From a virus (lineage: Duplodnaviria > Heunggongvirae > Uroviricota > Caudoviricetes), in IMG/VR virus record IMGVR_UViG_2861064056_000003: a DNA stretch of 42,396 nt; one strand, 5' to 3'. This document shows, one piece after another, positions 21,418-36,759 of this stretch. The notes beneath the pieces were generated by a model. That model saw only the letters and a program-made list of their open reading frames with translations, was not told where the DNA came from and made no database searches. Within the stretch, counting starts at the first letter, position 1. Every line of letters begins with the position of its first letter. The position numbers and the translations under genes are program-made.

Positions 21418-22089
21418 TTATACGCAAACGTCGTCTAAATGGTTCTGATAATGATGCAAAGTTGCAAGAAGTGCCACTTCATCAAGTGCTCTCACCGCCT
21501 CTTTCATTCCTACCCAGTGCAGGGAGTATGTTTCGCACCAGGTGGAACGAGAAACCGACAGCATTCCTGCTAGGGTAGATCCGGCCATCTCCTTAAAATC
21601 CTCGCGTTTATTTGCTGCTGCGACCGCCTGCACGGACAACCACACCAACGAAAGCAGGCGCTTAACTACTTTTCTCTGAGTTGACGCGGGGATGTTTCCT
21701 TTATAGCGACTCCAGACAGCCTCACAAATAGCTGTTTGGTGTTTGAATGCCAGGTTACCACCGTAGCAATAACGCAACCACGCTTGCTGACTTGCATCCA
21801 GCGAGTTCACAGAACGCCGCCAGGATGAATCAGCAAATTCAAAATCACTCATCGGCGGCGCGGGGCGACGTCTGCTGAAACTTTCCAGAGCGTAAACTGG
21901 CGTAACCAGAGCATCAACGGTCCGGTCCTCCAGCTGCACACGGTGAATATGTTTGCGTGGGTATGCGTTTTTGTCTGCCGGTGGGTGCTCACACAATGCT
22001 TCCAGTTGCCCCTTAGAACCACCAGACAAATCCCGCAATGCAGCGCGCAGTTTTATGCGGGTATATTCCAATAAATACTCGTTACTCAT
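21418..22089 (-). CDS. Late-gene antitermination protein Q-like
   Basis: 223 aa, Cys-containing, immediately upstream of the late promoter and lysis genes and after the YbcO-like gene. Confidence 0.5.
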   Translation of the reverse strand: MSNEYLLEYTRIKLRAALRDLSGGSKGQLEALCEHPPADKNAYPRKHIHRVQLEDRTVDALVTPVYALESFSRRRPAPPMSDFEFADSSWRRSVNSLDASQQAWLRYCYGGNLAFKHQTAICEAVWSRYKGNIPASTQRKVVKRLLSLVWLSVQAVAAANKREDFKEMAGSTLAGMLSVSRSTWCETYSLHWVGMKEAVRALDEVALLATLHHYQNHLDDVCV

Positions 22090-22382
22090 CAGATAAACTC
22101 CTCATCGCGCCAGATAGCCAGTGTTCTGAAAACTCCCTCAGCGTGCATCAACAACAATGAGTCGTGCTCGTAATCCGTTTTTGTACGTCCGTCGATGGCA
22201 TCGTGACACGCACTGCAGGCGATAGCGCCCTGCATATCGTGAGGTTTGATGGCTGTGCCGCACGTTCCGGCGAGACGATAATGAGCCAGTACGCTGGTTT
22301 CAGGATTGTGATTGCACACACCGGGGATACGCACAGTACAAGCGCGACTGCGTGCAGCTTTTCTCAGGTCGATTTTTTTCAT
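22089..22382 (-). CDS. YbcO-like protein (DUF1364, predicted nuclease of nin regions)
   Basis: RKAAR.R.C.VRIPGVCN.NPETSVLAH.RL.G.CGT..KP.D...AIACSACHD.ID.R matches recalled E. coli YbcO. Confidence 0.65.
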   Translation of the reverse strand: MKKIDLRKAARSRACTVRIPGVCNHNPETSVLAHYRLAGTCGTAIKPHDMQGAIACSACHDAIDGRTKTDYEHDSLLLMHAEGVFRTLAIWRDEEFI

Positions 22383-22975
22383 GATGTGTAATCCAGCAGC
22401 TGCGCGGCGGCATTTTCAGCGGCCTCCTGAGAGGCAAATGTGCGGAACAAAATATAATTCCACAGCACATCTAAAACGGCTGAATACAGTTGACCGAACT
22501 CAAGATCGTCCATCGCTGCAAACGAGATTGAACGAGGTACGCGCATCAAACTGCCGTCTGGCATCTGATGAACGTCATAAAACCCAGCTTCCATAATCGC
22601 CCATGCGCGAAACGCCTCGAACGACTTCACCGCACTGATACTCCCCGCGCGCTTTTCCGACTCATCGAGAAGATACTGATCAGCCAGCTCTGCCATGACA
22701 TCACCGTGTCCACCGTAATACGCCAGTAACTTAACGTAGCCGTGAACCAGTTCGCGCTCCGCAGGAGAAATAGCCCCTCCGGACGGATGCCAGTAATCAA
22801 AGCCCAGGTTGAGAAGTGAGAAAAATTTACGATGAAACGCGGGATTACGCGCCTGTTTGAAATCTGCATACACAACAGCACCTGGTTTGACTCGTTCAGT
22901 CAACCAGCGTTGCGTGTCTGGTGTCGCGGGTATTAGCGAACCGCCGGATACCCTGATAAATGAATGCTGCGCCAT
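22379..22975 (-). CDS. nin-region protein (DUF1367/YbcN-like)
   Basis: 198 aa directly upstream of the YbcO-like gene with overlapping start; family assignment from memory. Confidence 0.4.
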   Translation of the reverse strand: MAQHSFIRVSGGSLIPATPDTQRWLTERVKPGAVVYADFKQARNPAFHRKFFSLLNLGFDYWHPSGGAISPAERELVHGYVKLLAYYGGHGDVMAELADQYLLDESEKRAGSISAVKSFEAFRAWAIMEAGFYDVHQMPDGSLMRVPRSISFAAMDDLEFGQLYSAVLDVLWNYILFRTFASQEAAENAAAQLLDYTS

Positions 22976-23052
22976 GGTTAACTCCAGGTGGCGCGGCAGT
23001 GTTCAGAAAATGGTGCCGGGTGTTCAATCCAGCACCGATATTATACCGTGTT

Positions 23053-23232
23053 TTACGCGTCAGGGGGTGTAATAGTATATCCAGCTATTTCTGCCAACTC
23101 GAGAAACGCCATCAGGCTGGCAATCCGCTCATCATCGGTCAGAACACGCACACCAACGATGTGTCCGTCCTTACGCTTGATAACAGCCCGGCATGTTTCC
23201 GGTAGTTCGCCTATAGATTCTTGAATATTCAT
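23053..23232 (-). CDS. Small protein (59 aa) downstream of a LexA-box promoter
   Basis: ATG at 23232 preceded by a G-rich RBS; track start at 23253 is TTG and sits inside the LexA box. Confidence 0.4.
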   Translation of the reverse strand: MNIQESIGELPETCRAVIKRKDGHIVGVRVLTDDERIASLMAFLELAEIAGYTITPPDA

Positions 23233-23254
23233 GTCTTCCCCCCAATGCCACAAC

Positions 23255-23270
23255 CTGTATATTTATACAG
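23255..23270. promoter_or_regulatory. LexA (SOS) box CTGTATATTTATACAG
   Basis: Fits CTGT-N8-ACAG with AT-rich spacer; 16/20 match to the recalled consensus taCTGTatatatatACAGta. Confidence 0.6.
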
Positions 23271-23289
23271 TATTTTATGGCATTTGTCA
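23262..23289 (-). promoter_or_regulatory. Sigma70-like promoter overlapping the LexA box
   Basis: Minus strand TGACAA -35, 16-bp spacer, TATAAA -10 lying inside the LexA box. Confidence 0.45.
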
Positions 23290-23383
23290 TAACGCCAAAT
23301 ACAATGAGGGAATAATGAACAATTATATTCACGTCGTGAATTTTATTAAACGGTTTTATAGGGGATTAAACCGTTTATGGTCA

Positions 23384-24025
23384 TTATTTATCACTCCTGT
23401 AAATTGGAATTAACCATTTTCTAATCGTCGACGCTGCAGGTGGGTCAGAGTATTTCGCCACAAAAATACCGGATATGTATTGCACGCCACGCGATAATGG
23501 CGCTGTCGGGTTTTCAGTAAAAAAACGATCAGCCAGTTCAATGGCTTCGCTTTTTAATCTGTGCTGTGGTCGTCCTCCGCCCTTTGTTCCCAGGTATCGC
23601 GCCAGTTGTTTGAAACGGTAGGCGATGATTAACGGTCGCATCATCATATTGAAAAAATCGCGGGCATCGTTGTCAGCGCCTTGCGCTATCAACAGTGCAA
23701 AAAACAGATACGGGATTATGTACACTTCAGGAGATATACGAACCCGTTCACAAGTTGGTGGAGCCAACTCAATAAGTAAGTCAGCCAGCGGATTCCCCTT
23801 TTCTCCACGTTTGTAATAGCGATACAGCGGCCCGATATCAAGTTCACTCACGTCGATTTCAGGATGCCCGGCAACGACTGTACGTATCTCTTCTGCCAGA
23901 GCGTCAAATATTGCCCCGGTCCGTTCAAGATAGAGCCTCCGGGTCGAACCGCGATCATCCAACGCCCGTAACATATCTAACCGGCTAACGAAAGTTTCAG
24001 GCCAGTCCTCATAGAAGGTTTTCAT
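23384..24025 (-). CDS. Hypothetical protein (~213 aa), no recognised family
   Basis: ORF track; start taken at MKTFYEDW with a weak GAGGT RBS; divergent from 24269..24502. Confidence 0.45.
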   Translation of the reverse strand: MKTFYEDWPETFVSRLDMLRALDDRGSTRRLYLERTGAIFDALAEEIRTVVAGHPEIDVSELDIGPLYRYYKRGEKGNPLADLLIELAPPTCERVRISPEVYIIPYLFFALLIAQGADNDARDFFNMMMRPLIIAYRFKQLARYLGTKGGGRPQHRLKSEAIELADRFFTENPTAPLSRGVQYISGIFVAKYSDPPAASTIRKWLIPIYRSDK

Positions 24026-24268: not shown

Positions 24269-24502
24269 ATGGGTACGTTAGGCAACCAGCCGTGCAGAAG
24301 TCGTTATGAGTTCGATGATTTTAATTTAGCCAATCGAGCTGCGGCTCTTACTAAGTTAGCAAAAGAAACTGGTGTATCGGTGGATACCTTAATCAAACTT
24401 GAAATTGCTATGCAACTGAATCGGCTCAACTCCATCCTTATCGAAAACGGTGACAAGATGGACGAGAATCTGGCAGGTATTGGCGAGATACTGCAGAAGT
24501 GA
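24269..24502 (+). CDS. Small protein with probable helix-turn-helix
   Basis: 77 aa; RBS GAGGAA; LAKETGVSVDTLIKLE resembles an HTH; followed by a hairpin. Confidence 0.4.
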   Translation: MGTLGNQPCRSRYEFDDFNLANRAAALTKLAKETGVSVDTLIKLEIAMQLNRLNSILIENGDKMDENLAGIGEILQK

Positions 24503-24508
24503 GAGTAG

Positions 24509-24524
24509 CCCCTCTTCTGAGGGG
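24509..24524 (+). terminator. Hairpin CCCCTC-TTCT-GAGGGG after the 77-aa gene
   Basis: Perfect 6-bp stem directly 3' of the stop codon; short U-tract. Confidence 0.35.
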
Positions 24525-24801
24525 TTGCACATTTAAAATATTAAGGGCGGTCTTCTTCACGTACACAGTCACCTGGTCGAATCGTTCACGCATACTGAGT
24601 ACAAAAAATCTCAACGATAAGATCAGGTTAGACCTGTATTTTCCAGAAACATATAGACGCCTAAAAAAACACTAAACTCATGATTATCATGTATGTTTTT
24701 ACTGGAAACATTGAACCATCCACAATACAGCGTAAAAAGCAAGCAATTCACAAGATTTTAAAGTGATTTATCTGGAAGACTTTACTACTAACAGTTAATA
24801 T

Positions 24802-24846
24802 CGTACCAGAAGTGCAGAATTTGCACTTTTACAGGAATGTGGTACG
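24802..24846. promoter_or_regulatory. Nested dyad symmetry upstream of the ImmA-like gene
   Basis: Outer CGTACCA...TGGTACG and inner GTGCA-gaatt-TGCAC inverted repeats 55-100 bp upstream of the ATG at 24901. Confidence 0.4.
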
Positions 24847-24900
24847 GAACATGCTGTCTATATTTCAACCAATAATCGTAATGCAGTAACTGGAGGAGCT

Positions 24901-25389
24901 ATGGCTACCAACCCAAGAGAGCACGCCCGGCGAGTGCTGGACACGTTCTGGTGCGGGCGTGGTTTCCCTGTTGATCCAGCGAAAATTGCTCACGACATGG
25001 GATTAGATGTTTTTATTACCGATCTTCCTGGGAAAGTTTCTGGCGCACTGATTAAACAAAAAGATCAAGATCCAGCGATCTTTCTAAACAGTGATGACAA
25101 CAAAGTTCGTCAACGTTTTTCATGTGGGCATGAGTTGGGGCATTACATCGCCCGGCAAGCATCGCATAGCGATGAATATGAGTACGTTGATTTACGTGGC
25201 GAAACCGCAAGCGCCGGAACGCATCCTGATGAAATTTTTGCAAACAAGTTCGCAGCAGAACTTCTGATGCCGGTAGATGAGGTCAGAAAACTGCACGCTG
25301 ACGGTCAACCAAGTTATATAATGGCGCATTATTTTGGCGTATCTGACGATGCGATGACTTATCGTTTAAAGAACTTGAGGTTGGGGTAA
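24901..25389 (+). CDS. ImmA/IrrE-family zinc metallopeptidase (M78-type)
   Basis: RQRFSCGHELGHY signature (HEXXH after RxRF); strong RBS GGAGGAG; 162 aa. Confidence 0.7.
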   Translation: MATNPREHARRVLDTFWCGRGFPVDPAKIAHDMGLDVFITDLPGKVSGALIKQKDQDPAIFLNSDDNKVRQRFSCGHELGHYIARQASHSDEYEYVDLRGETASAGTHPDEIFANKFAAELLMPVDEVRKLHADGQPSYIMAHYFGVSDDAMTYRLKNLRLG

Positions 25390-25398
25390 CGCTTTAAA

Positions 25399-25914
25399 AT
25401 GCCATCGGATGACGATTTTAACAGCCGTTTCAAACAGGAAGTAGCACGCAGACTGAAGGATTCCCTCAACCTACACCGTCAGTTAGCAGAAGAGGTTGAG
25501 CCGGAGGACGATGAAACTCCGGTTCAGTCTCCTGACGAAGCTTCACCTCAGCCAAAGGTTTCGCACGCCCCCAAAAAAACGGCTGTCCGTATTCGCGGAA
25601 TAGCCAGAAAAAGAGCTGCCGAAGCTCGCAAAATGGCTGTAGCTGCGTCTAGCAAAAGAATTCCAACTGCTACACCCTCTCAACAAGTCACCCGTACTGA
25701 GAGTAAAATCTTGACCGAGTTCACATCTGTGAAACAGGTGAATTCACTTGATACCGAGCATGAGCGCAAACAACTCAACAACAAAGATTTTGAAGCAGAA
25801 ATCGCTCTAAAAAAACGATACGGGAAATGGTTCCTGATTATCCTTGCTTTCCAACTTCTGATAATGAATGGTGTATTTATTGCCGACGGCGCAGGTAAGC
25901 TGGAATTTGGGTGA
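25399..25914 (+). CDS. Charged protein with C-terminal TM segment, 3' end interrupted by IS1
   Basis: Start 10 nt after the ImmA-like stop; stop codon supplied by the IS1 end; frame continues in 26686..26780 once IS1 and one TSD copy are removed. Confidence 0.5.
   Translation: MPSDDDFNSRFKQEVARRLKDSLNLHRQLAEEVEPEDDETPVQSPDEASPQPKVSHAPKKTAVRIRGIARKRAAEARKMAVAASSKRIPTATPSQQVTRTESKILTEFTSVKQVNSLDTEHERKQLNNKDFEAEIALKKRYGKWFLIILAFQLLIMNGVFIADGAGKLEFG
25902..25909. repeat. Target-site duplication GGAATTTG, left copy
   Basis: Identical 8-mer immediately flanks both IS1 ends. Confidence 0.75.
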
Positions 25915-25964
25915 TGCTGCCAACTTACTGATTTAGTGTATGATGGTGTTTTTGAGGTGCTCCA

Positions 25965-26240
25965 GTGGCTTCTGTTTCTATCAGCTGTCCCTCCTGTTCA
26001 GCTACTGACGGGGTGGTGCGTAACGGCAAAAGCACCGCCGGACATCAGCGCTATCTCTGCTCTCACTGCCGTAAAACATGGCAACTGCAGTTCACTTACA
26101 CCGCTTCTCAACCCGGTACGCACCAGAAAATCATTGATATGGCCATGAATGGCGTTGGATGCCGGGCAACCGCCCGCATTATGGGCGTTGGCCTCAACAC
26201 GATTTTACGTCACTTAAAAAACTCAGGCCGCAGTCGGTAA
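25965..26240 (+). CDS. insA: IS1 InsA
   Basis: 91 aa [42 protein letters not shown]..., the IS1 InsA sequence. Confidence 0.9.
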
Positions 26241-26662
26241 CCTCGCGCATACAGCCGGGCAGTGATGTGATTGTCTGCGCTGAAATGGACGAACAGTGGG
26301 GCTACGTCGGTGCTAAATCACGTCAGCGCTGGCTGTTTTACGCGTATGACAGGATACGGAGGACGGTTGTGGCGCACGTCTTCGGTGAACGCACTCTGGC
26401 CACACTGGAGCGTCTTCTGAGCCTGCTGTCGGCCTTTGAGGTCGTGGTATGGATGACGGATGGCTGGCCGCTGTATGAATCCCGCCTGAAGGGAAAGCTG
26501 CACGTAATCAGCAAGCGTTACACTCAGCGAATTGAGCGGCATAACCTGAATCTGAGACAACATCTGGCAAGGCTGGGACGGAAGTCACTGTCGTTCTCAA
26601 AATCGGTGGAGCTGCATGACAAGGTCATCGGGCATTATCTGAACATAAAACACTATCAGTAA
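26159..26662 (+). CDS. insB: IS1 InsB (made as InsAB' by frameshift)
   Basis: 167 aa ORF with the IS1 InsB sequence (..[28 protein letters not shown]..). Confidence 0.85.
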
Positions 26663-26677
26663 GTTGGAGTCATTACC

Positions 26678-26685
26678 GGAATTTG
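26678..26685. repeat. Target-site duplication GGAATTTG, right copy
   Basis: Matches 25902..25909. Confidence 0.75.
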
Positions 26686-26708
26686 AGGATTTAACACTAC
26701 AGTTGTAC

Positions 26709-26780
26709 ATGGGCGGTACTTTGACAGAGGTATTCGGCCTCGTGCTGGTCGTGACAAAATACCTTTTTAAACGCAAGTAA
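26709..26780 (+). repeat. Copy 1 of a ~75-bp direct repeat encoding MGGTLTEVFGLVLVVTKYLFKRK
   Basis: ~92% identical to 30132..30203; here in frame with the IS1-interrupted gene 25399.. Confidence 0.6.
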
Positions 26781-27027
26781 CTCTCTCGGTCCAACAGTCT
26801 TTCGAAGGCCCTGATCAAAGGGCCTTGATAAATTAGCAGTGCGTTGAAAACAGATAGTTATTCCCATCAGTTCCAACGTAATACACATCAAAAAAATCAC
26901 CATTCTTTTGCTCTAACGTCAACACCTACCCTTAAAAAAATAATTCTCCAAGAATGAGAAAGTTATTGTGTGTATTAGATAAGATATGAGCTGACACATC
27001 TATGGCGTGGAGCCAAATTTAATATGA

Positions 27028-27059
27028 CAGTCCGCTCTGTGCCATAAGCGGACTGTCAA
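27028..27059 (-). terminator. Hairpin GACAGTCCGC-N12-GCGGACTGTC downstream of the low-GC gene
   Basis: Perfect 10-bp inverted repeat; A/T-rich on the minus-strand 3' side. Confidence 0.4.
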
Positions 27060-27242
27060 TAAACAGATTCACTTGTAAATCTTGAAGCTATACATATTTA
27101 CTTTCAATGATAAATAAAAGAACTATCCAAAAATCACTGAGAGCATATTTTAACTAACCCTCCGCTACTATTAACATAAATTTCACCCAACCATAATTAA
27201 ATTGATACATATAGCAACTTACCTTGATACGAATCATCTGGG

Positions 27243-27941
27243 TTATATTTTTCCATATTTTTTTCCGTCAAATCGAATCATGCCAGGATCAAGAAAATTA
27301 ATTAAATCGATTAACGCGTGCTGTATTCTGATTAGCCTTTCTTTATAAATTCCGATATCTCTTGTCATATTTATCACTTCATTGTTTAAATCTAAAAAAA
27401 ATGGCTCATTGATAAAGCAATTTTCCTTTGTGAAACTGCCGTAACCTATGCAATCAAATCCAGTATCTGTTGATATCAGCATCTTTTCTGCAATAGCTCT
27501 CTGCTCTCCTATGAAAAACATAAAATACTGACCAAAGACGTCTGTTTGGATTAATGAGTTAATATTGTTCTGTAATCTAATAAACTCCCTCATTTTTTTA
27601 TTTTTTTCTAGGCTAAGGTATTGAATGTCTATGCGGGCAGCTTCTGTCCATGCAAAAAACTGGGAAAAAAGAAAAACAGTATTGTTGATAACATAATCTT
27701 GTTGGCGCTTATTCCCATTATGATAAAACTCTTCAATGAACCCCAATTCTAATATATTATAAATACGGCTTTGTAAGTCTGAAGCTGAGCGAATTAACGG
27801 TTCAATATAGTACTGATGTTTTCTCCTTACATCCAGTGATTCATTGAGCTTGTTTATTCTATTCTGATTATAAGTAGATATAGCAATAGAGATTATAGCT
27901 ATTGCACCACTAATAAAGCTTGAAATTAATGCCGTACCCAT
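27243..27941 (-). CDS. Hypothetical membrane-anchored protein (232 aa), low GC, no recognised family
   Basis: N-terminal hydrophobic segment (ALISSFISGAIAIISIAI); RBS AAGGA; AT-rich codon usage unlike the rest of the prophage. Confidence 0.55.
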   Translation of the reverse strand: MGTALISSFISGAIAIISIAISTYNQNRINKLNESLDVRRKHQYYIEPLIRSASDLQSRIYNILELGFIEEFYHNGNKRQQDYVINNTVFLFSQFFAWTEAARIDIQYLSLEKNKKMREFIRLQNNINSLIQTDVFGQYFMFFIGEQRAIAEKMLISTDTGFDCIGYGSFTKENCFINEPFFLDLNNEVINMTRDIGIYKERLIRIQHALIDLINFLDPGMIRFDGKKYGKI

Positions 27942-28504
27942 CTAAAAGTCCTTTGATTCTTGCTTGGTTAACAAAATGACATAATTTTATTTAATGCCAT
28001 AACAACTTAACAATATATCATAATATGATTATTATGGTGTAGCTTGTCGCATCTACGCTCCATTACAAACAGATGTAAGATATAACCTATATGTTTTAGC
28101 CAGCAAATTCGAAAGCATTCAAAGTAGTCTCATCGAACTCTCGAAACCCTATGTCTTCGGGTATAAAATATTTAAATCCATTTGCATAATATCGACTCAT
28201 GTTTATTATATTCTCCCCATTCACCATTAAGATTTGACATTATTTTCAACAATCGGTTATTGCAAGATTGAAATATATTTTTACTTGACACAATATTCCA
28301 TGTAGCCCAGCGATTCGACTTACCCCCAACTATACGGACAATCTAAATTAAATCGATGATTTTTTGATACATTCTCCTCTCTCCATTACTTTATGTTTTT
28401 GTTCCCCAAAAATACCTTGCTCTCTAAAAAATAATTGTTCTTTAAGTTCAAAATCGAGATCTACATGAGCGTTAGATACAAAGCTAATATGTTGAAATGT
28501 CTTT

Positions 28505-28513
28505 CCCCCCCCC
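28505..28513. repeat. C9 homopolymer (G9 on the minus strand) in AT-rich ORF-free DNA
   Basis: Read directly; on the minus strand the tract follows an ATG opening a 55-codon ORF (28348..28515). Confidence 0.8.
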
Positions 28514-29129
28514 ATAACGGCATTGTTATCTAAACTATGTTACACAAATATAATATTACCCTTTCAACGTAATCCAAGAATAAGATTAATGCCATTATAT
28601 ATATCATAAATATGATATTTTGTATATTTTTATCATTTAGCCTTGATTGTACTAGGTGTACTCTCAACGAAGTAGGGAAAGTCTGTTCCTCGCTCACAGC
28701 TGCCCTTCAGTAAGCGAAAAAATGCCTACTCGGTGCCATATACAGCCATTGTTATTAACAGCAGGGAATAATTCAAAACTGAAATTAAATATCTACCTTT
28801 TACAGTAGAAATAGTTCCTCCAGGACACTATCCATTGCCGGGCACAATCACTCGGGGTATAACGATATAAAATATGTTCATGATAGTGCAGGTTCGTATA
28901 TTAAGTTCAGCAGCGAAAACATGCCTTACAGGTTTCCGGTTTTGGGAGCGTCGTTACAGGATCCTGCGCATACCGTTCCCATCTGTTGAATTAAAGGTTT
29001 CACAGCCTTTGCCGATATCACCTTTTACCTTACCTGTGATGCGTTCAGTGCTCAGCGTTGTTTACTGTAGCTCTCGGGACTGATTACAGACCGCGTCTTA
29101 AAAACCAATCCTTACTCTAAAGGGAATTC

Positions 29130-30053
29130 ATGAGATTAAAATACTCAGTACTCTTACTCGCCATTGCCCTTACAGGCTGTGATAACAAAAAAGATGAGAT
29201 CGGTTGTTCTTCGGAAATAACCCAGTCAGCTCTCATGGATTTATTAAAAAAATCTGCTTATGAAGGACTCTCTGAACAGGTCGATAAATACCCTGATGTC
29301 ACTAATCAGACCAAACGAAGCACACTGGACAAGATCAAACTAGCCATCTCTGAGATCTCCACAACATCAAGTGACACGGGCAGCACAATGAAAACTTGTG
29401 AAGGGACCGTGACGATGACTCTATCTGCGAACGAGTACGTCCAGCTTTCAGATGCTTACAGAAAGAATTTTAATCGTAATCTCGATAAGCAAATGGAAAG
29501 CCTGTTTTTGGAGAACAACGCAAACGCCTTTTCAAAACGTATCACCTACACCGTGCAGGCGACCGACGATCAGAAAAACGTTTTTGTAAAAACCTCTACT
29601 GATAATCCGATATCAGTGGGCGCCGCTTTACTGACATCGCTTTCCATTATCACCCCGATCGTTGAGCAGCAGAAAATCCAGCAGGCTAAGGATGCCCAAC
29701 AGAGTCAAATTGAAGCGGAACAACAGGTGCAACTCAGGGCGCAAGAACAGGCTAAGTATGAGGCGGAGAAGCAAATAGAGAGACAGGCACAACTTCAGCC
29801 GCAAAAAGCTGACAACCTTGATCAGTCCCGAATGGCATTTGCGAATGCCGACTCTGATTTGAGTACCGTCTGGAGCAAGTTAACCCCGGCGAAGAAAAAA
29901 GATTTGCTGCCTTCTCAGCGTCAGTGGATCAAAACTAAGGATGCTATGTGCGGTAAAGTTTCAATGCAGGGAACAGATGCTGAAGTCAAGAAAATGGTCG
30001 ACTGCCAGACGCAAATGACCCTTTCAAGAATCGCTTTCCTCAGAAACCAATAA
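29130..30053 (+). CDS. Lipoprotein with C-terminal DUF1311-like domain (LprI-type lysozyme inhibitor family)
   Basis: Lipobox LTGC after a signal peptide; Q-rich coiled region; C-terminal ..W.KL....K..L...Q..WIK..D..C.. pattern; RBS AAGGGA. Confidence 0.6.
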   Translation: MRLKYSVLLLAIALTGCDNKKDEIGCSSEITQSALMDLLKKSAYEGLSEQVDKYPDVTNQTKRSTLDKIKLAISEISTTSSDTGSTMKTCEGTVTMTLSANEYVQLSDAYRKNFNRNLDKQMESLFLENNANAFSKRITYTVQATDDQKNVFVKTSTDNPISVGAALLTSLSIITPIVEQQKIQQAKDAQQSQIEAEQQVQLRAQEQAKYEAEKQIERQAQLQPQKADNLDQSRMAFANADSDLSTVWSKLTPAKKKDLLPSQRQWIKTKDAMCGKVSMQGTDAEVKKMVDCQTQMTLSRIAFLRNQ

Positions 30054-30227: not shown

Positions 30228-31046
30228 TCAAAATGCTGAATTAGCAACGGATATAGCCGACTTTTTCCCCATTACCATCAATTTATCCAGTGTCATACTT
30301 CGCAGATTGTCGCTGTGGATCACCAGATACCCTGCCCGCTCAGCGATCTCTTTGAAAGCGTCAAAGGTCATCAGATGTTCGCCTTTGGCAACATGGCGCA
30401 TCCCGGTCACTTTTCCATTTTTGATAGTGGTGATAAAAGAAAAATCTGGAATGGTTGGGTGATTTTCATCGAGTAGCAGGCAGTGGATGTATTCAATCGC
30501 CTCTAACATTTGCGTCTGTGACAGTTGTTCTATGTGAGAGACGGCGAAGCGTTGATGAATCATGGTGTAGGCATCGGGATACATCATGCCTTTCTTGCCG
30601 ACCAGTATATTAACGGCATCACGCAAGGGAGTACGGTCATCGGTAGTTGTACTCCGCCTCTCTGGACGCTGGCTAAAATAACAATCTTCCAGCTTTTCGA
30701 AAACTTCCCAGGCCTGTTCTGTTTCCAGCATTTTGGCATGGCGAGCTGCGCCGCGTTCTGTCCAGAGAATGAGGGATCGGGTATGTTTAGCAACTGACTG
30801 ACTATCTGTCAGTCTGTTTTTGAAGTCGCGTAATTCATTACCTTCCAGCTTAAAAAAATGCTTTCCTACGACAAATCTGGCGATGTTGCGCTTGAAGTTT
30901 TGCTGGATACCATTTACTTCCGTGCCATACAAACTGGCAAGCAATTCAGTAGTGATGACGGGAAGTTGGTTATGATGTAGCGGAGAAAGGGATTCCGCAG
31001 ATATTTGGACTGTCATCGCAGTGGCCTCACTTAGTGTTTTTTTCAT
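30228..31046 (-). CDS. Putative phage antirepressor (Ant-like, KilA-N/ORF6N-type N-terminus)
   Basis: 272 aa; N-terminal region resembles antirepressor DNA-binding domains (memory-based); start taken at ATG 31046. Confidence 0.45.
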   Translation of the reverse strand: MKKTLSEATAMTVQISAESLSPLHHNQLPVITTELLASLYGTEVNGIQQNFKRNIARFVVGKHFFKLEGNELRDFKNRLTDSQSVAKHTRSLILWTERGAARHAKMLETEQAWEVFEKLEDCYFSQRPERRSTTTDDRTPLRDAVNILVGKKGMMYPDAYTMIHQRFAVSHIEQLSQTQMLEAIEYIHCLLLDENHPTIPDFSFITTIKNGKVTGMRHVAKGEHLMTFDAFKEIAERAGYLVIHSDNLRSMTLDKLMVMGKKSAISVANSAF

Positions 31047-31077
31047 CACCACCAGCGACGCCAATCATCTGGTGGTG
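31047..31077 (-). promoter_or_regulatory. RNA hairpin abutting the ant start codon
   Basis: Perfect 9-bp inverted repeat CACCACCAG-N13-CTGGTGGTG; on the mRNA the 3' arm ends directly at the AUG and covers the SD-like GGUGGUG. Confidence 0.4.
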
Positions 31078-31177
31078 AGCTGTGCAGGGTTGGCGTAACC
31101 GGCTAAGTGAACCCGGCGCTTCCACAGAAGCCCCCACACAGCCCACCATAATGCGAATGTGGCCGTGCCTAACACAT

Positions 31178-31197
31178 AAAAAAACCGCTAACGCGGC
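31178..31197 (-). terminator. Weak terminator between the nin genes and ant
   Basis: Minus strand CCGCGTTAGCGG hairpin followed by TTTTTTT. Confidence 0.3.
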
Positions 31198-31288
31198 TAT
31201 GCGTCACTTAGATATCCGGGACGCCAATCCCGGCAACCGATTTTGCGGCTGCGCGGAAACTATAGCCCCGGACTTTTTCTAAGTCAAT

Positions 31289-31510
31289 TCAATCAACTTC
31301 AAACCTCCGGTGTTCACATTCCATACACTCAACGGGAACATCATCGCGATGCAAGTCCACATATCCGACCCGCTTATACAACTCAATAATGTCCGGTAAC
31401 GTGACCAGATGTTTTTCCGGTTCCAACACCTCAGCCCGGGTTACTTTGTAATCTGAAATATAGAGCACTATCCGCCCGTTCCGTGGTAACTCCAGTTTAT
31501 CGCCAAACAT
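31289..31510 (-). CDS. Hypothetical nin-region protein
   Basis: 73 aa ORF in the minus-strand early operon. Confidence 0.35.
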   Translation of the reverse strand: MFGDKLELPRNGRIVLYISDYKVTRAEVLEPEKHLVTLPDIIELYKRVGYVDLHRDDVPVECMECEHRRFEVD

Positions 31511-35869: not shown

Positions 35870-36100
35870 TTAAGCTGCTTCCGTTTTAGGCAAGCTGTCA
35901 TCTGGGTTTGGGTAAAGATCCGGTCTAAGATCATGAGGGGTCACGCGCCATTCAAGAGCTTCAGATGTGCGCAAAACCTCTTCACCGGGAACCCGTCCTT
36001 TGAACCAGAGGCTTACCGTTTGTGGTTTTTTCCCTAATCGCCGCCCTAACTCGGATTGACTCATTACGGAAAGAATTTTGTCTTGCAGTTGTTTATCCAT
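35870..36100 (-). CDS. Cro/YdaS-like HTH regulator
   Basis: Start taken at MDKQ with RBS AAGGAG; SQSELGRRLGKKPQTVSLW HTH; divergent from the repressor gene. Confidence 0.65.
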   Translation of the reverse strand: MDKQLQDKILSVMSQSELGRRLGKKPQTVSLWFKGRVPGEEVLRTSEALEWRVTPHDLRPDLYPNPDDSLPKTEAA

Positions 36101-36198
36101 ATGGACTCCTTGTGTCCGCGTCATCATTACAAACAATAACTGTAATTACAAATTATATTTGCAATGCTCCCTACAATTAAACCTTGTATCCTTACGGT
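36101..36198. promoter_or_regulatory. Divergent promoter/operator region (OR-like)
   Basis: 98-bp AT-rich gap with TTACAAA at 36127 and 36146, inverted TTTGCAA at 36158, and dyad TTACA-N9-TGTAA at 36127..36145. Confidence 0.5.
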
Positions 36199-36612
36199 AT
36201 GAACACAAAAACGAAAAACATGGCTTTTGCTAGCCGACTACAACGGATTCTAAAAGACTTAGGCTGGTCTCAATCTGAGTTAGCTCGCCATATTGGGGTT
36301 ACGGCTCAATCAGTTCAGGCATGGTGTAATGGGGTAACTCCAAGAAAAGATAAATTAGACAAGCTAGCAAAAGTGACCGGATACCCTGTTCATTTTTTCT
36401 TCATGAATGAAGGGGAATATTTGGATGAATCCACACTACACCCGGGTAATTACAATCAAGAACTAACCCCGCAAGAACAGGCTCTACTGCAACTATTCAG
36501 AGGACTGCCTGAGAGCGAAAAAAATAAATTAATCAATGAGCTAAAAGAAAAAAGAGAGCACTTCGATCTACTGCTAAAAGAACTACTTGAAGCCAAAAAC
36601 CAGACAAAATAG
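36199..36612 (+). CDS. DicA-like HTH repressor without a peptidase domain
   Basis: XRE-type HTH (QSELARHIGVTAQSVQAW) plus C-terminal LTPQEQALLQLFRGLPESEKNKLINELKEKREHFDLLLKELLEAKNQTK resembling the recalled E. coli DicA C-terminus; no SD before the ATG. Confidence 0.7.
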   Translation: MNTKTKNMAFASRLQRILKDLGWSQSELARHIGVTAQSVQAWCNGVTPRKDKLDKLAKVTGYPVHFFFMNEGEYLDESTLHPGNYNQELTPQEQALLQLFRGLPESEKNKLINELKEKREHFDLLLKELLEAKNQTK

Positions 36613-36730: not shown

Positions 36731-36759
36731 TTGACCATTACAAATACAAATTGTAAAGT
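36731..36759 (+). promoter_or_regulatory. Putative PL-like promoter with operator dyad
   Basis: TTGACC, 17-bp spacer, TAAAGT; the spacer holds dyad TTACAAAT-ACA-AATTGTAA sharing the OR half-site. Confidence 0.35.

Follow-up and report, generated by a model that had tools for sequence, protein, structure and literature searches.

A LexA-box promoter and a candidate Rem/FsoA-family antirepressor gene in an Escherichia coli prophage

The stretch analysed here (the window) is the whole virus record IMGVR_UViG_2861064056_000003, a Caudoviricetes sequence of 42,396 nucleotides (nt) corresponding to an Escherichia coli prophage. It carries a gene for a protein of 59 amino acids (aa) whose promoter contains a LexA (SOS) box, and the product of this gene is probably a small acidic antirepressor from the Rem/FsoA family, which would be shut off by the LexA protein of the host and would trigger the induction of this prophage. 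The observations behind this reading are the box with its promoter context and its conservation, the family membership of the protein, the synteny with the Gifsy prophages and the type of the prophage repressor. The gene is annotated as hypothetical in 445 of 5426 complete E. coli genomes, which contain the 500 bp around the box, nearly all at an identity of at least 99%; many of the best-matching records are human isolates, and the same 500 bp are also present in one deposited phage record, vB_EcoM-705R4. If the gene is the SOS trigger, it would explain how DNA-damaging antibiotics induce a prophage with a non-cleavable repressor, and induction could be tested or blocked at a single small target.

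The LexA box and the promoter of the 59-aa gene

The first-pass annotation had described CTGTATATTTATACAG at 23255-23270 as an SOS box overlapping the -10 hexamer of a well-spaced promoter in front of a 59-aa open reading frame (ORF), and each of these elements was recovered. The sequence and coordinates are exact and the site is the sole CTGT-N8-ACAG in the window. This core motif alone is not rare, being expected 0.32 times per window and found at least once in 26 of 100 shuffles, but the full 20-mer at 23253-23272 (TACTGTATAAATATACAGGT on the minus strand) matches the E. coli SOS consensus TACTGTATATATATACAGTA in 17 of 20 positions, a score reached in 0 of 100 shuffles. The promoter was read from the sequence as ATGACA-17-TATAAA, with the -10 inside the box; transcription is predicted to start near 23255, and the palindrome spans both the -10 and the expected start. 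The distance from the box to the ATG at 23232 is 20 nt. The ORF downstream (23232..23053, minus strand) is the same coding sequence (CDS) that RefSeq annotates as hypothetical protein WP_001025459.1. An alternative TTG start would give a protein of 66 aa; it coincides with the predicted start of the transcript, and its use is unlikely.

A second promoter-like site, TTAATA-16-TATAAT, was identified upstream of the LexA promoter (23322-23377, minus strand) and is well conserved. Its spacer contains the palindrome TTCACGTCGTGAA, and an AT-rich hairpin (TAAACGGTTT/AAACCGTTTA) precedes it. Identity over this non-coding DNA remains at about 85% even where that of the small protein falls to 58%; in two of the loci (L005 and L008) the palindrome is disrupted. 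A second copy of these palindromes was sought elsewhere and none was found.

Conservation of the box among homologues

In homologous loci with 58-76% protein identity, ATGACA and TACTGTATA(A/T)ATATACAG are kept and the intervening spacer changes. Four more distant lineages (P0009, P0011, P0014 and P0016), with proteins 36-42% identical to the 59-aa protein in the family alignment and upstream DNA that is not alignable, have CTGT-N8-ACAG 49-147 nt before the start codon, usually as the only such site in 3-8 kb. The box is present in five of the eight lineages of the short subfamily, against about 0.003 sites expected per 200 nt, and the chance of such a result is estimated at about 1e-11 (the value computed for six of eight lineages is 2e-14). 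Judged from these sequences, SOS wiring is frequent, not universal, in the short subfamily. One E. coli assembly (L010, 3960-3985) has lost 2 bp from the TA run within the box, leaving CTGT-N6-ACAG, a change that should abolish LexA binding and would correspond to an assembly error or to a defective prophage.

It is scarcely credible that the box arose by chance, as a palindrome without function in AT-rich DNA between genes. The expected frequency of the core motif would allow it, but the extended match, the exact overlap with the promoter, the conservation of the box amid a diverging spacer and its recurrence in independent lineages do not fit such an origin.

Family membership of the 59-aa protein

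The 59-aa protein matches the family PHROG 340, whose function label is unknown, at 1.6e-20 over residues 1-58. Against that profile Rem, encoded by the Qin prophage, scores 4.4e-21, and the alignment of a profile of the 59-aa family with Rem gave an hhalign probability of 88.6% (E 2.7e-6). Direct BLASTP of the 59-aa protein against Rem found nothing, the link requiring profiles. The third member is a 78-aa ORF of the Fels-1 prophage, located between STM0896 and STM0897, which matches PHROG 340 at 1.1e-26 and the 59-aa protein itself in BLASTP (41% identity over 39 residues, E 3e-8). The fsoA gene was mapped by deletion to the STM0896-STM0897 interval (PMC3121763), and location and family together suggest that the 78-aa ORF is FsoA. 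The core motif common to Rem, the Fels-1 protein and the 59-aa protein is R-V-V-I..G..V..R.L.DDEHI..L..F.E.A..AG[YF]. A shorter motif, R.[VI][IL]...G.V..R.L..DD...E....G, is visible in both GftA and the 59-aa family. Precomputed Pfam marks for Rem (PF27490), graded 'weak' or 'faint', were present in the relatives P0011 and P0009.

Members of this group have been characterized as antirepressors. Rem was found by iterated PSI-BLAST searches starting from Gifsy-1 GfoA and Fels-1 FsoA, and relieves the repression of a DicA-controlled promoter 165-fold (PMC10448788). FsoA and GftA inactivate GtgR by binding, and the Gifsy antirepressor binds its repressor with the level of the repressor unchanged; GfoR and GtgR, the repressors concerned, are short and resemble DicA and RacR in kind (PMC3121763).

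The Rem genes proper of Qin, mEp460 and the PPompW/Stx2a phages (L002 4652-5130, L021 and L022) lack an SOS box and lie behind a hok/mok cassette with a strong terminator. The missing box agrees with the report that mitomycin C does not induce the target promoter of Rem.

The protein is acidic (isoelectric point 4.7), with a maximum 19-residue hydropathy of 1.36 and no membrane segment, and the same character was found in Rem, in the Fels-1 78-aa protein and in GftA. Its AlphaFold model is confident (predicted local distance difference test, pLDDT, 88) and consists of a helix, a beta-hairpin and a second helix (helix-strand-strand-helix). Foldseek searches of the PDB and BFVD with this model gave no analogue, the fold being silent on function, and a profile search of the PDB sequences with the 59-aa family gave no credible match. 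Scans of the protein against Pfam (E up to 10, with no DinI match either), NCBIfam and PADLOC gave nothing, the Pfam copy scanned being one without the Rem model PF27490, in which Rem itself is unmatched. A word-indexed protein search recovered close relatives only, and an exhaustive search gave the 16 hits from which the family alignment was built. The genome-collection scan returned one locus only, the diversity of the family alignment was too great for a pattern scan, and a viral scan with P0009 as the query returned no match.

These properties bear on the alternative left open in the first-pass annotation, that the gene encodes an SOS-induced toxin or cell-division inhibitor like TisB, SulA, DicB or Kil. 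It is a small prophage gene under predicted LexA control, and overproduction of Rem leads to filamentation (PMC10448788). The filamentation, however, runs via DicB and DicF, that is, through derepression (PMC10448788), and the 59-aa protein is acidic and soluble, has no run of 19 residues with the hydrophobicity needed for a membrane helix, lacks matches to Pfam, NCBIfam or the defence and toxin families, and belongs to a family and a gene position typical of antirepressors. A toxin or division inhibitor is accordingly disfavoured, and very improbable.

Gene context and the Gifsy-type module

The window contains lambda-like head genes and genes for a contractile tail, and the integration site adjoins tRNA-Leu/Cys/Gly, pgsA and uvrC. 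The minus-strand order is lambdoid: cro-like, ydaT-like, replication and accessory genes, the 59-aa gene, DUF1367, YbcO, Q, lysis, terminase, head and tail. The 59-aa gene is outside the immunity region, 13 kb from the repressor gene, and directly upstream of the DUF1367 gene, the homologue of Gifsy irsA. In Gifsy-2 the order as read is LexA box (TACTGTGTTTATATACAGTG), dinI, gftA (73 aa), the irsA homologue STM1020 (DUF1367), NinG and Q. The order in the window is the Gifsy-2 order minus dinI, with YbcO ahead of Q; no ORF intervenes between the box and the 59-aa gene. The small gene is followed by DUF1367 in every related locus whose DNA extends beyond it, and DUF1367 by a nuclease gene and then, in all but one of the loci reaching that far, by Q. 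Coordinates are collected in Table 1.

The dinI-gfoA/gftA/gfhA-irsA module of Gifsy-1/2/3 (Lemire et al. 2011, PMC3121763) is the closest known system. There, as in the window, the promoter has an SOS box, the gene for a small acidic protein (about 60-75 aa) is situated outside the immunity region and immediately before irsA/DUF1367 and Q, the repressor is of the short DicA/GtgR type without a cleavage domain, and the CUGAACA-loop hairpin comes after the antirepressor gene. The window differs in having no dinI homologue, which leaves the small gene as the first cistron after the box, in starting this gene with ATG (GTG or TTG in Gifsy), and in belonging to a phage with a contractile tail and an E. 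coli host.

Qin Rem (Ragunathan et al. 2023, PMC10448788) and Fels-1 FsoA share with the 59-aa gene the family PHROG 340 and a position upstream of the nin/Q region, and they target repressors of the DicA/GtgR type. Rem differs in its 83 aa, which include an insertion, and in its unboxed upstream region; the window gene would be the SOS-wired version. The window joins two published results, in that it has an intact, putatively LexA-wired form of the Rem/FsoA antirepressor, present in Qin only without the LexA wiring, at the Gifsy-type position beside irsA and Q. The general mechanism (the Gifsy paradigm) has been known since 2011, and the gain is in annotation and in the definition of the family, not in a new principle.

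Tum is a protein of 146 aa with a DinI-like C-terminal half. In phage 186 a LexA-repressed promoter drives this antirepressor, which binds a non-cleavable repressor, and N15 AntC works in the same way (PMC3121763). The first-pass annotation had compared the small gene with such Tum-type antirepressors, and the likeness holds for the mechanism and fails for descent: the protein is only 59 aa long, has no DinI-like half and no match to a Tum family, PHROG 340 not being one. It is not a member, and GfoA/GftA, FsoA and Rem are closer.

Table 1. Coordinates of the features discussed, on the 42,396-nt window.
Feature	Position	Strand	Remarks
LexA (SOS) box, putative, 20-mer	23253..23272	.	Core 23255-23270; 17/20 match; kept in homologous loci
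-35 hexamer ATGACA	23285..23290	-	Read from the sequence; invariant in homologue alignment, with diverging spacer
-10 hexamer TATAAA	23262..23267	-	17 nt from the -35, within the LexA box
Shine-Dalgarno-like GGGGGGAAG	23235..23243	-	2 nt before the ATG; G-run conserved in homologue alignment
59-aa CDS, Rem/FsoA-family small antirepressor candidate	23053..23232 (stop included)	-	Profile, comparative and model evidence
TATAAT, conserved, probable -10 of the DUF1367-YbcO-Q operon promoter	23040..23045	-	Alignment; fits the Gifsy-1 antQ start
Hairpin GGUGCUGG-AUUGAACAC-CCGGCACC, then AUUUUCU	23012..23036	-	Conserved YUGAACA loop, covarying stem
DUF1367 protein, homologue of Gifsy irsA (STM1020)	22379..22975	-	Domain scan, clear homology to STM1020
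YbcO-family putative nuclease	22089..22382	-	Domain scan
Late-gene antiterminator Q	21418..22089	-	Domain scan, RefSeq annotation
Prophage repressor, DicA/GtgR type, presumed target	36199..36612 (RefSeq start 36220)	+	Helix-turn-helix (HTH) and C-terminal helix, no S24
Candidate operators, palindromes ATTACAAA..TTTGTAAT (TGTAAT-type)	36126..36188	.	Between the repressor and cro-like genes
Cro-like regulator, first gene of the early-right operon presumably held off by the repressor	35870..36100	-	Annotation transferred by offset
isrK RNA	31178-31252	-	Rfam gathering-level hit
C4 antisense RNA	31068-31153	-	Rfam gathering-level hit
ORF6N anti-repressor gene, 278-aa protein	30228-31064	-	Directly downstream of isrK/C4/a1b1; PHROG class anti-repressor
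73-aa ORF, second stand-alone Rem-like protein	31289-31510	-	PHROG 340 at 3.5e-21; hhalign 95.8% to the 59-aa family
ImmA/IrrE metalloprotease resembling CapP, regulator of the cyclic-oligonucleotide-based antiphage signalling system (CBASS)	24901-25389	+	CapP match at 2.4e-25

The repressor and the proposed mechanism

The repressor of the window is 33% identical to GtgR over the full length (5e-23) and 32% identical to DicA. It had been called DicA-like and lacking an autocleavage domain, and this description was upheld: HTH_3 is its only domain, and neither a peptidase S24 domain nor an Ala-Gly or Cys-Gly bond was found in it when they were looked for. Palindromes of the ATTACAAA..TTTGTAAT and TACAA-N7-TTGTA types were identified at 36126-36188 and again at 36739-36755, just after the repressor gene, and are the probable rightward and leftward operators. 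A search for repressor operators around the small gene and around the promoter of the Q operon gave none.

By analogy with GfoA/GftA, FsoA and Rem, LexA would bind the box, the promoter would be induced by damage and this repressor would be physically inactivated. In the lysogen, a LexA dimer on the box would cover the -10 and the transcription start and no 59-aa protein would be made. After DNA damage, active RecA would stimulate the self-cleavage of LexA and the promoter would fire; the 59-aa protein would then accumulate and bind the DicA/GtgR-like repressor, which would be released from the operators at about 36126-36188. Expression of the cro-ydaT-replication operon and of the leftward operon would follow, and lytic development would begin. 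The family match, the Gifsy position, the repressor type and the recurring box all argue for the small SOS-induced antirepressor, acting on a non-cleavable repressor, that the first-pass annotation had put forward.

Several points weigh against this reading. The -10 (TATAAA) is without the canonical final T and the promoter was not listed by the consensus promoter scan, which missed it because the -10 ends in A; the LexA-box promoter is a reading of the sequence backed by conservation, not a scan hit. Three of the eight lineages of the short subfamily have no box, and Rem, the best-studied member of the family, also lacks it and has a target promoter not induced by mitomycin C. Homology of the 59-aa protein to GftA is not significant and not demonstrable (GftA against PHROG 340, E 0.23; hhalign probability 2.5-5.5%), and the FsoA identity of the Fels-1 ORF is deduced from location and family. 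The window holds two more Rem-like domains and an ImmA/CapP-like protease, making other routes of derepression conceivable, and the real target of the 59-aa protein could be the repressor of another prophage. A literature search gave no experiment on the 59-aa gene or its prophage.

The hairpin and the probable promoter of the Q operon

The hairpin located after the small gene was compared across nine diverged loci, Gifsy-2 included. The YUGAACA loop is invariant, 94% of the stem cells are paired, compensatory changes occur in five of the eight pairs, and 0 of 500 shuffles reach this result. Most of the aligned loci also have a conserved TATAAT, some 3-8 nt before the hairpin. As a terminator the hairpin is at best weak (4 U, z = -1.2) and the U-run is not conserved elsewhere. 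An intrinsic terminator after the small gene was considered and rejected, the hairpin being real and its U-run not conserved.

In Gifsy-1, transcription of the antQ operon was mapped to a start 1,600 nt ahead of antQ (PMC4825925), and this fits the position of the hairpin and TATAAT as read in Gifsy-2. Transcription of the Q operon probably starts from a separate promoter, and the hairpin would form the 5' end of the operon. Transcripts from the LexA promoter may read through into the Q operon, though this is not needed, and the hairpin may act either as the 5' leader of that operon or as a weak terminator of the transcript from the LexA promoter.

These data bear on a decidedly unlikely explanation, by which the LexA promoter mainly serves DUF1367, YbcO and Q; SOS would then directly raise the recombination functions and Q, and the 59-aa ORF would count as no more than a minor leader gene. 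In its favour, DUF1367 is on the same strand as the small gene with a gap of only 77 nt, the LexA-regulated operon of Gifsy was reported to include irsA (PMC3121763), the early-right operon is separated from Q by roughly 6 kb of accessory genes on the opposite strand (24269-30053), which would make a local Q promoter useful, and the weakness of the hairpin as a terminator would favour read-through. Against it, the small protein belongs to a conserved family in which some members are proven antirepressors; the conserved TATAAT with its 5' hairpin, together with the Gifsy-1 start at the matching position, argues for a separate promoter of the Q operon; and the hairpin of the window is followed by AUUUUCU.

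The hairpin is part of a larger conserved non-coding element (window 22976-23045, minus strand), identified before every DUF1367 gene examined. It comprises the TATAAT, the YUGAACA-loop hairpin, a second CUGAACA and then CUGCYGYGCC ahead of the Shine-Dalgarno sequence, and the same element is present in L003 (11706-11767), L005, L009, L013, L016, L018-L020 and L026-L032. It probably supplies the DUF1367-nuclease-Q operon with its promoter and 5' leader. An Rfam scan of 22800-23500 gave no family. A complement of the CUGAACA loop in the C4/IsrK sequence was looked for by inspection, with no pairing computation made, and none was evident.

Other Rem-like domains and possible routes of derepression in the window

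The second antirepressor module is located at 30228-31265. The isrK, C4 and c4 a1b1 target elements, the last also at the Rfam gathering level, span 31068-31265 on the minus strand and are followed by the gene for the ORF6N protein, whose N-domain is 74% identical to that of Gifsy-1 AnrP. From its sequence this module is a second, RNA-gated one, like P1 immI and the isrK-orf45-anrP unit of Gifsy-1, whose layout has been described (PMC4825925). At its C-terminal end (residues ~204-253) the ORF6N protein has a Rem-like domain akin to the 59-aa protein (hhalign 95.8%; PHROG 340 at 4.6e-12), and AnrP has a weaker Rem-like match in the corresponding region (17.6%). The variable C-terminal module of the large ORF6N antirepressors thus seems to exist also in free-standing form, as the small antirepressors. 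The immI/IsrK-type module differs from the 59-aa gene in being under antisense or small RNA control, not LexA, and in encoding a 278-aa protein with an ORF6N N-domain.

The 73-aa ORF, which RefSeq lists as hypothetical, immediately precedes isrK within the early-right operon. The ImmA/IrrE protease belongs to the opposite-strand accessory block, with neighbours at 24269-24502 and 25399-25914 and no recognised HTH partner adjacent to it.

With these genes in the window, the 59-aa gene might be a real LexA-controlled antirepressor that acts in trans on the repressors of other resident prophages, as FsoA does, and not be the trigger of this prophage, which would be induced instead by the ORF6N/AnrP-like antirepressor, by the 73-aa paralogue or by ImmA/CapP-like cleavage of the repressor. 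This is unlikely. In its favour are the two further Rem-like domains, one of them behind the IsrK/C4 RNAs, the strong match of the protease to CapP, and the documented cross-talk among such antirepressors, FsoA acting in trans on the repressors of other prophages (PMC3121763). The 73-aa ORF and the ORF6N protein, however, would be made only after derepression, because both are inside the early-right operon. The protease is neither linked to the repressor gene, from which it is 11 kb away, nor co-inherited with the repressor: the ETEC1738 prophage has an identical repressor (WP_000853106.1) and a boxed small gene at 76% identity, and no ImmA-like protease. Finally, the only gene of the window with an SOS box is the 59-aa gene.

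A wider reading, possible but rather doubtful, is that three inputs are funnelled into one DicA-like repressor through three copies of one small repressor-binding fold. The stand-alone 59-aa copy would be LexA-gated and respond to SOS, the 73-aa copy from the early operon would act as a feed-forward element, and the copy fused to ORF6N would be gated by IsrK/C4. The Rem-like fold would then be an exchangeable specificity module of the large ORF6N/AnrP antirepressors, and the CUGAACA-loop hairpin would be an undescribed regulatory leader of the DUF1367-nuclease-Q operon of Gifsy-like and many lambdoid phages.

The exhaustive protein search also recovered two much larger proteins, P0013 (481 aa) and P0018 (680 aa), each with 4-5 separate stretches matching the 59-aa protein; by these matches, they contain tandem Rem-like repeats.

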